From an uncultured Phycisphaeraceae bacterium (GTDB taxonomy: Bacteria > Planctomycetota > Phycisphaerae > Phycisphaerales > Phycisphaeraceae): a stretch of 64,000 bases of DNA. This document shows positions 48,785 to 52,724 of this stretch, one piece after another. The DNA lies in assembly GCA_964426135.1 (NCBI GenBank), contig CAYRPN010000018.1, forward strand, positions 65-64,064. Reading direction: 5' to 3'. Position numbers and translations under genes: made by a program. Position 1 is the first letter of the stretch, and the number at the start of each line of letters is the position of its first letter. The notes under the pieces are model-generated. The model did not search any database, was not told the origin of the DNA, and saw nothing but the letters and a program-made list of their open reading frames with translations.

Positions 48785-48788
<4 letters not shown>

Positions 48789-49609
48789 GGCATCCTCCCC
48801 ATGAAGGCGTGGACGATGATGACGTGGGCCGCCACGCAGGTGAGCAGGCTGTAGGTCACGGCGATGTGGACGAACAGCCAGCCCTTGAGCGTCTTCTGCA
48901 AGGCGCGCTGGTAATCCAGTTCATCCTTGACGTAGACGAGCTGCGCCAGTTGGCCGGCCAGTTCCTTTTCGCGGTCGTTCAGATAGCGGTCCAGGTCGCC
49001 GAATTCCGTCTCGTAATTGTGCCGCGGGCGCTTGGATTCGACGATGTGGAACCAGTAGTTGCGGAAGCCCGCGAAGTACTGGTTCAGCCGGCTGCGGTAG
49101 TAGTCGGCGATGGTGGTGGTGCCCGTCTCGGCGACGGACTCGACGACGAGCTTTTCGGCGGCCTCGTGCAGGTTCCGGCGATAAATCGGCATGCGCTCGA
49201 ACATCAGCTCCTCAGCGCACACCGCCAGCCGGCGCGGGAACGACCGGGTGATGAAGATGCCCACCAGGCCGCTGCCGACGACGAGGATGAACAGCACGGT
49301 GATGAGCGTTTCCAGTCCGCCGTTGGGCACCCGGAAGCCGGCATGGGCGCCGAACATGGGAATGGTGAGCAGGCCCAGGTACAGGTGAATCTGAAGCCAG
49401 GTGGAGGATCGCAGGATCGGGAGAAAGGAGAGCTTCTTCCTCAGGTTGTAGGCGGTGAGCACCAGCATGACCGTCAGCAGGCTCCATCCCGTGAAGAACG
49501 CGGTGCGGTTGAGCGACTGGGCCCTGGCCCAATAAAACACCACCACCACCAGTGCGGCAAGCACGGTGAGCAGAATGGCGACTCGGCGACGTTCGGCGAA
49601 GGTACGCAT
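48785..49609 (-). CDS. Five-TM membrane protein with paired His-14-His motifs (candidate dihaem b-type cytochrome)
   Basis: ATG at 49607-49609 (the tracked start is a TTG one codon upstream). TM3 is ..[17 protein letters not shown].. and TM5 is ..[21 protein letters not shown]... In each helix, two His are exactly 14 residues apart. Confidence 0.6.
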
Positions 49610-49660
49610 CAATGATCCTGCAATGCCAATCTGACAAATCGGGCTTTGTGTTCTGATTGA

Positions 49661-50152
49661 TCATTCGTCGGCGCGAAAGCGGATCGTCCCATTTTCCCGC
49701 GCCCAACGTTCGCTAAAGCCAACATGAGAAATCTGATTCTTGCTCTTGTCGAGTTTTCGATCGGCCTCTGCCGCTACGACTTCTGGTTCCAACTCATAAA
49801 CCACTTTAAGTTTCATAGGATCGGATTTGTAAAAGACCGCAAAGTATATTTTCTGGTTTCGGCGCAGTCTTTCAAGCGACTGTTTTCGCTCTGCGGGTGG
49901 ACTGCTATAAACCCTGTCAAGCTGTCCCGTACCACCCTCTTGGCATGATAGGTATTCATAGACCATCTTGCTGTTGGGGTCTCGGGCATCGGGACCGTGT
50001 TTCGACGGCAACAACTCGTGTTTCAGTTGTGTGGCAACGATCAATTCCTTAACAAGTCCAGGCTGCAACAGATTAGGGATGCCTATTCCGCGTGCCAGCG
50101 CTGCTGCCTGTTGAACCAAGTCAATGATTTTGAGATGTGCCTCCCGGCTCAT
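49661..50152 (-). CDS. Candidate type II restriction endonuclease (small, PvuII-like by eye)
   Basis: ATG at 50150-50152 (MSREAHLKII..), overlapping the methyltransferase 3' end by 32 nt, in low-GC DNA. ..GIPNLLQPGLVKELIVATQLKHELLPSKHGPDARD..VYEYLS.. and ..VVYELEPE.. parallel R.PvuII ..[41 protein letters not shown].. and ..IYRLEPK.., recalled from memory. Confidence 0.4.
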   Translation of the reverse strand: MSREAHLKIIDLVQQAAALARGIGIPNLLQPGLVKELIVATQLKHELLPSKHGPDARDPNSKMVYEYLSCQEGGTGQLDRVYSSPPAERKQSLERLRRNQKIYFAVFYKSDPMKLKVVYELEPEVVAAEADRKLDKSKNQISHVGFSERWARENGTIRFRADE

Positions 50153-50945
50153 TGGAAAGCTCCAATAGTGGATGCCAATCTCGCTCTTCAAGCCTCAATT
50201 GACCAAGCTCGACGAAATTCGCATCGAGCTCAAACGCAATGAAATCGCGACCGTGGCGCTTGCAGACAACCGGGCACGTTCCGACCCCCGCGAAAGGATC
50301 CAGAACCAGATCGCCCGGACTGGAACTGGCAAGCACAAGCCGCTCGATCAGACGGATCGGTTTCTGGATCGTGTTCAACGCATCGCGACTGACCAGTTCT
50401 TTGGACTTGTAGGTGAGCTGCTTGATGTCGCCCCATACGTCGCCGGGATTCTTGCCGTCATGATTGAACTTCGTTTTTCCATAGGTGCCGTTGCGCACCG
50501 AAGGAACACGCTCGCAGCGCATGCGATGCTCCAACTCCACCAGTTGCGGCACGCGAATCGCGTCGAGGTTGAAAACGCGAGGGCGCTGTCCCTTGATGAA
50601 ATAGCAAATGATGTCGTGGTTGTTGGTGTAGCTCAACCTGCCCTGCGAAAGTCGGCTGGGTTGGTACCAGACGATTCGGGACCGCAGGTTCAGAAAGGGT
50701 CGATAGTCGATGAAATCAACGCAGTCGTGCTTGCCGAAAAGATAAAGCGCGCCGCCGGGCTTGAGCTTGGATGCGAACCGGCGAATCAACCCCAGGTTGA
50801 ACTGCTGAATGTCGTCGACCTGATCCCAATCATTGGCCGTGACGCCATAGGGTCCGTCGCACACGACGAGATCGACCGATTCGTCATCGATCTGCTCGAT
50901 CAGTTCGAGCGCGTCGCCATGATGGATGGTGTTTCGCTCGATCAT
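50121..50945 (-). CDS. Site-specific DNA methyltransferase, beta-class N4-C/N6-A family
   Basis: ATG start 3 nt after the upstream gene's stop. Motif IV-like DGPYG (..LVVCDGPYGV..) precedes motif I DPFAGVGT, which is the beta-class permutation. ~274 aa, in low-GC DNA. Confidence 0.85.
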   Translation of the reverse strand: MIERNTIHHGDALELIEQIDDESVDLVVCDGPYGVTANDWDQVDDIQQFNLGLIRRFASKLKPGGALYLFGKHDCVDFIDYRPFLNLRSRIVWYQPSRLSQGRLSYTNNHDIICYFIKGQRPRVFNLDAIRVPQLVELEHRMRCERVPSVRNGTYGKTKFNHDGKNPGDVWGDIKQLTYKSKELVSRDALNTIQKPIRLIERLVLASSSPGDLVLDPFAGVGTCPVVCKRHGRDFIAFELDANFVELGQLRLEERDWHPLLELSNEPGGTSQNH

Positions 50946-50948
50946 GGT

Positions 50949-52724
50949 CTACCTCGACAGCCATCCCGCAAAGTTCTCCGTGTTCCGCATGTCGATGCGC
51001 TTCAGCGCGTCGTGCGGGCAGGCTCGTTCGCAGCTTGGCGTGACGAGCTGCTCGACGCACAGATCGCATTTGGTGGCCTTGACGATGGGGGCGTTGTTCT
51101 TGTCGAGGACAAGGCCGCCGGACTCGTCGCGGATTTCCACCATGCGGATGTTGTTGTACGGGCAGCTGTTGGCGCAGGTGGCGCAGCCGATGCACGTCAG
51201 GTCGTTGACCACGACGCTGCCGGTGGACGCCTCGCGGCCGATGGCGCCGGTGGGGCATCCGATCATGCAGACCGGGTCGGAGCAGTGCATGCACGCGTTG
51301 GCGACCATGTAGTGGTCGTACTTGGGGCCGTGGCGGATGAACTTGGGGTTGTTCTCGTGGGCGGCGGCACAGGCTCGGACGCAGTCGTCGCAGCGGGTGC
51401 AGCGGTCCAGGTCGATGATCATCGTGGCGGTGCCGTTGATGAAGCGGTTCTCGACGAGGAACTCGAGCAGGCCGGTGTCGATCTGCTTGCGGGTATTGAC
51501 GCGGGCGACGGGCAGCGACAGTTCGCGTTCCGGCCTGGGCTTGTCGCCGTCCTTTGCGTGCTCGGGGTCGGGCGTCCTCGCCTGCACCTGGACCATCGCG
51601 GGCAACTGCTCGGGCTTGAGCATTTCCAGCACGTACTTCTCGACGATCGGCGACGGCACGCGCAGGATGTCGACATAGCCCACCGCGCGGAGCGTGTTCT
51701 GCAGCGGCACCACGTCCTTGCTGCGCCAGTTGTGGGCCAGTTCCTGGAACCCGTAGATTCCGCCGGCTCCGGTGTAACTGAGCGTGCGGTGGCCGTTGCC
51801 CTCGCGCTTCGAAACGCGGGCGAAACCGGAGCGGATCAAGATCAGGCCGTTGGGATAATCGCCTTCCGACGCGATGACCGGTTCCTGCGCCAGGCGTTCG
51901 GCGGCGCCCTGCTGGGCGAGCGTCTTGTACGTGGCGTACCACTCGAATCCGCCGTGCGTTTCGAACTCCGTCTCGTCGGCGACTTCCTTCAGTTGCTTTT
52001 CATCGAGGTGGGCGAAGATGGGCGTGTCGCGCAGGAAACTCTGCAAAGCGTTCTTGCGGTAGAGCGCGTCGATGTGGCGCTTCAGCGCCTCGTCGCGGCG
52101 ACGGATGTCGCGCAGGCCCTGCCAGCGGATCTCCAGAAGCTCCGCGTCGCTCTCGGCCACGATCGTCGCCGTGCGCGGGATGCGCCCCAGCGCCGCCAGT
52201 TCGCCGAAAAGCGAACCCTCGCCAAGCTGCACCGTCTTGTGCTTGCCGATGACGCCCGGCACGTCCTGCAGGAACACGCGCACCGTGTCGCCGCTGCTGC
52301 GCTGAGCGGTGCCGTCGGCCTTGGCCTGCTCGTACTTTTTCAGGTTGCGCACTTCGGGCAGGCGCGGGTTGGCCCACCACTGCGACAGCGCCTCCCACCA
52401 GCCCTTGCGCTTGCGCGTCTGCCGGCCCAGCACCGCCGGCGGCAGACTTTCGAGCACCACGCGCACTTTCCCCTTCAGAACCAGAAACGCCGAGTGCCCG
52501 TAGTCGCCTTCGCGCACCACCAGGTCGCCCGTCTTGTATTTCACCAGTCGCGTGTCGTTGGCGAGGATGCCCGACAGCGGCGTCGACTCGGGGAACTTGT
52601 TCGGATCGATGCTCTTGAACGGCTCGACCTTGAGCAGGCGATTGACATCCGCCTCGGTCATGTCGGGACCGAACGGCACGTCCCACCGTTGGGGTCGATC
52701 GATGGCGATGAGCGTTTCAGCCAT
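50949..52724 (-). CDS. Cytoplasmic protein with two cyclic-nucleotide-binding domains and a DmsB/NrfC-like four-cluster [4Fe-4S] domain
   Basis: ATG start and no signal peptide. cNMP-like beta-rolls (..GDLVVREGDYGHSAFLVLKGKVRVV.., ..VIASEGDYPNGLILIRSGFARVS..). Cluster motifs are CTRCDDCVRAC, CMHCSDPVCMIGC, CIGCATCANSC and CDLC..C..C. Confidence 0.8.
   Translation of the reverse strand: MAETLIAIDRPQRWDVPFGPDMTEADVNRLLKVEPFKSIDPNKFPESTPLSGILANDTRLVKYKTGDLVVREGDYGHSAFLVLKGKVRVVLESLPPAVLGRQTRKRKGWWEALSQWWANPRLPEVRNLKKYEQAKADGTAQRSSGDTVRVFLQDVPGVIGKHKTVQLGEGSLFGELAALGRIPRTATIVAESDAELLEIRWQGLRDIRRRDEALKRHIDALYRKNALQSFLRDTPIFAHLDEKQLKEVADETEFETHGGFEWYATYKTLAQQGAAERLAQEPVIASEGDYPNGLILIRSGFARVSKREGNGHRTLSYTGAGGIYGFQELAHNWRSKDVVPLQNTLRAVGYVDILRVPSPIVEKYVLEMLKPEQLPAMVQVQARTPDPEHAKDGDKPRPERELSLPVARVNTRKQIDTGLLEFLVENRFINGTATMIIDLDRCTRCDDCVRACAAAHENNPKFIRHGPKYDHYMVANACMHCSDPVCMIGCPTGAIGREASTGSVVVNDLTCIGCATCANSCPYNNIRMVEIRDESGGLVLDKNNAPIVKATKCDLCVEQLVTPSCERACPHDALKRIDMRNTENFAGWLSR

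Follow-up and report, generated by a model that had tools for sequence, protein, structure and literature searches.

A probable horizontally acquired type II restriction-modification unit with a PvuII-fold endonuclease candidate inside a multihaem operon of a Phycisphaeraceae bacterium

Our analysis of a 64,000-nt stretch of DNA from an uncultured Phycisphaeraceae bacterium (GenBank assembly GCA_964426135.1, contig CAYRPN010000018.1, positions 65 to 64,064 of the forward strand; hereafter the window) makes it highly probable that a minimal type IIP restriction-modification (R-M) unit was acquired horizontally and came to lie at the junction of the genes ptdE and ptdF, where it is likely read through. 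The unit consists of a methyltransferase and a PvuII-fold endonuclease candidate, for which the letters M and R are used below, for gene and protein alike. The ptdABCDEFG multihaem operon and PtdE follow the definition in bioRxiv 10.1101/2023.11.21.568154.

All positions are given in window coordinates, and all cassette genes and their ptd neighbours lie on the minus strand. The map of open reading frames (ORFs) and the sequence itself reveal five co-oriented genes with products of 591, 274, 163, 274 and 1317 amino acids (aa). A preliminary description of this stretch had put the M start codon at 50945, 3 nt past the ptdE stop, and had reported a 32-nt overlap of M and R; both statements agree with the ORF map and the sequence, and its coordinates are correct to within 1-2 nt. 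It gave 49 nt between the end of R and the start of ptdF; the count is 48 nt if ptdF starts with the TTG at 49612, and 51 nt with the ATG at 49609 that public gene calls use. The features are as follows.

50949-52724, minus strand: ptdE-like upstream host gene, 591 aa, two cyclic nucleotide (cNMP)-binding domains plus 4Fe-4S dicluster
50946-50948, minus strand: left junction, the 3 nt acc that separate the TAG stop of ptdE from the ATG of M
50121-50945, minus strand: M, beta-class amino-DNA methyltransferase, 274 aa
50121-50152, minus strand: M/R overlap, 32 nt
49661-50152, minus strand: R, PvuII-fold endonuclease candidate, 163 aa
49848-49875, minus strand: sigma-70-like match inside R, TTGAAA-16-GAAAAT, 9/12
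49610-49660, minus strand: right junction and spacer, 48-51 nt long
48785-49609, minus strand: ptdF-like downstream host gene, four-His, ferric-reductase-like membrane protein, 274 aa
44835-48788, minus strand: ptdG-like decahaem cytochrome gene, 1317 aa, overlapping the ptdF stop, with matches to Pfam multihaem families

The methyltransferase and its endonuclease candidate partner

M is a beta-class amino-DNA methyltransferase. It matches PF01555 (N6_N4_Mtase) over its whole length (E 2.4e-33), the type II methyltransferase models of PADLOC (MTase_II) at up to 1.2e-46 and the adenine-specific NCBIfam model PRK11524 at 3.7e-36, the last below its equivalog cut-off. Among solved structures M.MboIIA is closest (4.3e-30, full length), followed by M.RsrI (6.5e-21); M.PvuII (1BOO), which forms N4-methylcytosine (m4C), matches only the C-terminal 58 residues of M (3.7e-8). 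Both the S-adenosylmethionine-binding motif I (DPFAGVGT, near the C-terminus) and the catalytic motif IV (DGPY, near the N-terminus) are present and stand in the order of the beta class. DGPY, a variant of (D/N/S)PP(Y/F) that is neither the canonical DPPY nor SPPY, is common to 7/7 aligned members of the M family; a literature search on this motif found nothing relevant. The ATG is regarded as the true start because the N-terminus MIERNTIHHGD agrees with that of the family. M is probably an N6-adenine enzyme, as are its nearest counterparts among solved and curated proteins, though the non-canonical DGPY leaves room for an N4-cytosine enzyme; it would protect host copies of the recognition site by methylation, most likely as N6-methyladenine (m6A).

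Direct single-sequence searches with R gave no match in Pfam (E up to 10), NCBIfam, PADLOC or, by phmmer, the PDB. R nevertheless belongs to a widespread family, which comprises 1,239 proteins at E up to 0.001 in a 90%-clustered collection and 155 clusters in a 50%-identity representative library. Among the best 120 listed relatives, identity is 55-65% and length about 165 aa; wherever a source name is given it reads "hypothetical protein", and the named sources include Verrucomicrobia, Gammaproteobacteria, Planctomycetes, Poribacteria, Flavobacteriales and Chloroflexi. Only a profile of the family and structure prediction brought out the relation to PvuII. The profile, built from 44 diverse homologues, aligns with PvuII at E 1.2e-13 (positions 8-161 against 11-158), and the AlphaFold2 model built on the same 44-member alignment (predicted local distance difference test, pLDDT, 97.2; predicted template modelling score, pTM, 0.90) retrieves PvuII chains as all of its top 12 Foldseek hits in the PDB (probability 1.00, template modelling (TM) score 0.61-0.78). 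By profile and model R is a PvuII-fold protein. Close homologues score 17.5-20.6 bits on PF09225, for which the gathering cut-off is 25 bits; R itself has no match there, and the precomputed PF09225 label reads "weak". The start of R was set at the ATG that matches the family N-terminus, an alternative TTG 39 nt upstream not being conserved.

The active site is the unusual part of R. Residues D55 and E66 align with D58 and E68 of PvuII and are each retained in 42/44 homologues. The position of K70 is taken by Leu68, which is hydrophobic in 44/44 homologues, so that the PvuII triad D58/E68/K70 is incomplete at K70. Other strongly conserved polar residues are K/R35, E36, H45, K51, R95, R98 and N99, and 40 columns are invariant across 24 sequences. 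The modelled fold suggests that R is a nuclease, in which K35, K51, R95 or R98 may stand in for the missing lysine; presumably a homodimer like PvuII, R would cut unmodified copies of the site that M recognizes. The third catalytic position also varies in other PD-(D/E)XK restriction enzymes, namely BamHI, BglII and BstYI.

The two genes travel together. The linkage set consisted of 80 loci from a metagenome scan, gene-call loci and two viral contigs, 69 of which have at least 850 nt upstream of R. A member of the M family lies directly upstream and on the same strand in 64/69 loci and is adjacent in two more, once after a 250-nt gap and once convergently, which brings the linkage to 66/69. 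The M proteins of these loci are 63-80% identical to the window M, and the cassette is AT-richer than its own flanks in nearly all of the 66. In public gene calls the typical unit is a PF01555 protein of 264-274 aa followed by an R relative of 163-166 aa, usually with an 11-nt overlap; such pairs are called in Verrucomicrobiota, Gammaproteobacteria, Chloroflexota and other contigs. As in type II R-M systems, a methyltransferase with motifs I and IV is accompanied by a separate, adjacent gene for a protein of nuclease fold, and the two occur together across unrelated genomes. The preliminary description had recognized such a pair, and the PF01555 and PADLOC matches of M, the PvuII fold of R and the 66/69 linkage all agree with it. 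Defence-system finders would call M solitary, and a profile of this widespread R family, which standard libraries leave as "hypothetical", would recover more than 1,000 complete R-M pairs. Settings of the pair elsewhere are as follows.

L032-L035: M-R pair beside transposase fragments and an RHS-type gene
L036: M-R pair beside a HicA gene
L051: M-R pair between Usp-domain genes in a 5.9-Mb genome
L052: M-R pair between cobalamin and sarcosine-oxidase genes in a gammaproteobacterial metagenome-assembled genome (MAG)
L054: M-R pair in a Chloroflexi contig
L056:2850-4780: M-R pair in a microcompartment operon of a verrucomicrobial MAG, between two shell genes of the bacterial microcompartment (BMC) type

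With flanks of 64 nt upstream and 3 nt downstream, L056 is a second case of tight placement inside an operon. We make no statistical claim about a preference of the cassette for operon interiors, as greedy ORF calls and database calls disagree in high-GC loci such as L052.

The three R copies outside this linkage lie in other settings. A 134.8-kb IMG/VR contig (L140:4004-4489) and its second copy L141 carry a 49%-identical R beside genes for a dUTPase, a destabilase-like lysozyme and a family B DNA polymerase; there is no homologue of the partner methylase within 4 kb of this R. In L117 (56-1370) the R homologue is preceded, at a distance of 28 nt, by a gene for an IS1595-family (ISXO2-like) transposase, and the 900 nt upstream contain no methylase gene. 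L054 (7320-8495) and L051 (7070-8501) hold an additional methylase gene less than 3 kb from the cassette, which in L054 is fused to Mrr_cat and NA-iREase1 domains. These neighbours suggest that the L054 and L051 copies, unlike the window copy, sit in defence islands.

Foreign composition and insertion into the ptd operon

The cassette differs clearly from its host in composition. Its 1336 nt have a GC content of 0.534, compared with a genome mean of 0.633 (standard deviation 0.027; 1336-nt windows over the 6.25-Mb assembly); this is the 0.5th percentile, i.e. 0.5% of the genome windows are equally low. GC content at third codon positions (GC3) is 0.69 in M and 0.52 in R, versus 0.84-0.89 in five flanking genes. 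The cassette thus lies 10 GC points and 20-35 GC3 points below its host, and the sliding profile confines the dip to about 49.4-51.0 kb. The R family was found in 2/401 genomes sampled across the phylum, and none of 40 relatives of the same family and order has an M homologue of more than 31% identity. A plasmid origin was considered and rejected, as tblastn found no match in 72,556 plasmids. The greater AT content of both genes, reported in the preliminary description, is evident from GC profile, GC3 and genome-window percentile alike, and the anomalous composition together with the rarity of both genes among relatives supports its view of a foreign cassette.

Some residence time in the present host is suggested by signs of amelioration, namely the GC3 of M and one substitution at the M/R junction. 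In a comparison of seven cassettes, codon 3 of R is CGG here and CGT in the relatives, a synonymous, GC-ward change that destroys the family-typical TGA stop of M; M gains 7 codons and the overlap grows from 11 to 32 nt.

The host genes around the cassette are intact. PtdE (Pfam cNMP_binding, 7e-24, and Fer4 families) has orthologues of 51-76% identity located in ptd operons, and its C-terminus is preserved to the final residue (...WLSR* here, ...WVSR* or ...WLNR* in relatives). PtdF is 47-66% identical to the product of the gene directly 3' of ptdE in relatives, and ptdG has an orthologue in G038 and synteny in nine further operons. The reading frames from ptdC to ptdG are all open and syntenic.

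Twelve other ptd-type operons, among them those of the two nearest Phycisphaeraceae MAGs, do not contain the cassette. Their ptdE-ptdF junctions look as follows.

G038, same order: PtdE 64% identical, TAATG overlap
Seven operons from Planctomycetia and Verrucomicrobiota MAGs: PtdE 51-55% identical, ATGA overlap
Two remote homologous clusters: PtdE about 30% identical, 2-3 nt between ptdE and ptdF
Two nearest Phycisphaeraceae MAGs (L039, L040): PtdE 74% identical, spacers of 181 nt and 160 nt without R-M genes

A start-stop overlap of ptdE and ptdF occurs in 8/10 ptd operons (L031, which is G038, and L042-L048 among them), from Planctomycetia, Verrucomicrobiota and the same-order relative. Operons of two phyla share this overlap, so the uninterrupted junction came first and the cassette was inserted later. 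The pattern implies that translational coupling of ptdE and ptdF would be ancestral and lost in the window genome and its two nearest relatives. The insertion into a co-oriented operon that the preliminary description had proposed is thus borne out, and the opposite case, in which every relative would have the two genes at this position with native composition, clearly does not hold. An empty allele in the same population was not seen, as 7/7 public contigs with identical PtdE carry the cassette.

The spacers of the two nearest relatives (L039:2399-2579, L040:1883-2042) are unrelated, rich in inverted repeats and of a look that resembles repetitive extragenic palindromic (REP) sequences or miniature inverted-repeat transposable elements (MITEs). 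In this lineage, small insertions appear to have come in at the junction more than once.

Three of the contigs with ptd operons, L044, L046 and L048, come from MAGs titled Klebsiella sp., Akkermansia muciniphila and Klebsiella pneumoniae. Their operons are nearly colinear with those of Pedosphaera and Limisphaerales MAGs, and errors of binning or naming seem to lie behind the organism labels.

Traces of the insertion event itself were sought at both junctions. Flanking direct repeats, terminal inverted repeats and a target duplication are absent there, no repeat family spans both junctions, and local junction alignments are no better than shuffled sequence (p 0.66-0.86). The 48-nt spacer of the window shows no homology above shuffles to the L039 and L040 spacers, and no integrase or recombinase gene adjoins the cassette. 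Target duplication, terminal inverted repeats and spacer homology were consequently rejected as insertion traces; the absence of direct repeats and integrase had already been stated in the preliminary description and holds after repeat search and comparison with shuffled alignments. Given the spacers found at this junction in the nearest relatives, one may speculate that the cassette entered or replaced a spacer of that type, with trimming afterwards.

The proposed course of events is as follows. The unit would have landed at a junction that in most lineages is a 4-nt start/stop overlap and in the nearest relatives a hairpin-rich spacer of 160-181 nt. As R begins inside the 3' end of M, the two genes would be co-transcribed and probably translationally coupled.

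Expression, recognition site and competing explanations

Each gene has its own Shine-Dalgarno-like motif: GAGG 6 nt before the M ATG (within the end of ptdE), GGAG 7 nt before R and AGGA 6 nt before the ptdF ATG. The leader upstream of M, 24-250 nt in most other hosts, is 3 nt here. A consensus scan of the coding strand from the M start to the ptdF start detected no terminator-like hairpin. Given the lack of a 5' leader and of an internal terminator, M and R are most likely expressed from the ptd promoter, and ptdF and ptdG by read-through. The cassette would probably be transcribed with the operon as one transcript, ptdE-M-R-ptdF-ptdG, and expression of ptdG would depend on transcription through it. 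Studies of ptd expression in this organism need to take into account the roughly 1.3 kb of foreign DNA that separates ptdE from ptdF.

The genome-wide search for avoided palindromes yielded one conspicuous candidate. Among 4- and 6-nt palindromes, CAGCTG is the one most under-represented in the genome (285 observed, 1480 expected; observed/expected ratio, O/E, 0.19). As evidence for the target of R this depletion was rejected, as CAGCTG is equally depleted in cassette-free relatives (O/E 0.29 in about 226 kb; control loci L002-L050) and only ordinarily so in other carriers (O/E 0.52, rank 12/63, in flanks of 78 carriers that total about 207 kb). The depletion appears to belong to the lineage, not to the cassette, and suggests that the lineage was long exposed to CAGCTG-specific restriction, or to another constraint, unrelated to the cassette. 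The specificity of R is also probably not CAGCTG because the residues at the DNA-reading positions of PvuII differ. CTCGAG is the most consistently depleted palindrome in carrier flanks (O/E 0.31-0.47, versus 0.55-0.81 in controls), a value that derives from 25 observed sites and an estimator under which most palindromes come out near 0.5; it is a weak lead as recognition site. Site avoidance inside 63 cassettes gave no informative signal.

Several points weigh against an active R-M unit that is read through from the ptd promoter. The palindrome analyses do not allow a recognition site to be inferred, and no recombination footprint accounts for the entry of the cassette. R finds no Pfam match even at E 10, and its close homologues remain under the PF09225 cut-off; with the canonical PD-(D/E)XK lysine gone, its activity would need a relocated basic residue or an unusual mechanism. 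These last observations, together with the failure of every restriction endonuclease model in Pfam, NCBIfam and PADLOC to recognize R directly, the leucine throughout the family at the lysine position of the ExK motif, and the orphan R copies in the 134-kb viral contig and beside the IS1595 transposase, would also fit a scenario in which R is a DNA-binding protein of the PvuII fold that has decayed or been repurposed, and M is a solitary epigenetic methyltransferase. We consider that scenario improbable. A decaying protein does not fit 55-65% identity across phyla, the 40 invariant columns and the retention of D55 and E66; the tie to M with an overlapping start in 66/69 loci is expected if R is toxic alone, and the conserved K35, K51, R95 and R98 could supply the missing charge. 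Far less likely still is an ancestral cassette that was lost from the relatives. All seven contigs with identical PtdE do carry it, but composition and GC3 are well below those of the host, R occurs in only 2/401 phylum genomes, and the ptdE/ptdF overlap shared by two phyla, which makes the uninterrupted state the older one, already contradicts this scenario.

With regard to expression, an internal promoter would make ptdF and ptdG independent of ptdA-E, and M and R independent of the ptd promoter. AT-rich foreign DNA in GC-rich hosts often yields fortuitous promoters. The longer leaders in most other hosts could hold a promoter of the cassette's own, and R contains a weak -35/-10 match 240 nt upstream of ptdF. 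Here, however, M could have a promoter only within ptdE, the match in R is at chance level (one in the coding strand of the cassette, 1.1 expected in shuffles), and no terminator-like structure separates the genes. A sigma-70 scan says little about promoters of Planctomycetota, which leaves room for an internal promoter; on balance we regard one as unlikely and prefer transcription from the ptd promoter, with ptdF and ptdG reached by read-through.

A more far-reaching proposal can be put forward only tentatively: the members of the R family might be restriction enzymes that have the PvuII fold, a new specificity and an active site that is rearranged, with a hydrophobic residue for the ExK lysine and the positive charge supplied from another place, for which K35, K51, R95 and R98 are candidates. 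The window copy would be a leaderless member wired into the ptd operon, with restriction, modification and the downstream cytochrome genes on one transcript. If this is true, a PvuII-fold family of more than 1,200 sequences sits below Pfam thresholds and outside NCBIfam and PADLOC. The family offers a natural test of PD-(D/E)XK catalysis without a lysine at the usual place.

Comparison with known systems

The insertion event is of an already known kind, and the general idea is not new. Less ordinary are the absence, across the whole family, of the canonical catalytic lysine from a PvuII-fold enzyme whose tight linkage to a methylase persists, the complete lack of a leader in this copy, and the fact that a widespread endonuclease family has no name in standard libraries. 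For the operon itself, the cassette explains the sole compositional break in a conserved seven-gene cytochrome operon, which is interrupted, not broken.

Mobile R-M units inserted into operon-like clusters have been described by Furuta, Abe and Kobayashi 2010 (PMC2853133). The window cassette resembles them in being a type II pair between intact co-oriented genes at a start/stop boundary without a linked mobility gene. It lacks the long target duplication that is the hallmark there and fits the larger class "indel, others" of the same source, with an unusually tight junction of 3 nt. The host cluster follows ptdABCDEFG in its order of FAD/NAD oxidoreductase, tetrahaem, cNMP/4Fe-4S, membrane ferric-reductase-like and decahaem proteins, and differs from other ptd operons in that an R-M cassette splits ptdE and ptdF, which is the case in 0/12 others.

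M shares with M.MboIIA, M.RsrI and YhdJ-type enzymes the full-length PF01555 domain and the placement of motif IV before motif I, and departs from them in motif IV, where all examined members of its family have DGPY and not DPPY. R resembles PvuII (PDB 1PVI, 1F0O, 1NI0; PF09225) in size (163 versus 157 aa), in fold (TM 0.68-0.78, full-length profile alignment at E 1e-13), in the conserved Asp and Glu aligned to D58/E68 and in a gene that adjoins one for a beta-class amino-methyltransferase. In contrast to PvuII, identity is only about 20% and the Pfam score sub-threshold, Leu replaces the catalytic K70, and other residues occupy the DNA-reading positions (His83-85 segment, N140/N141). The cassette also differs from the PvuII system as a whole, as it has no gene for a control (C) protein, and its methylase resembles m6A enzymes whereas M.PvuII is an m4C enzyme.

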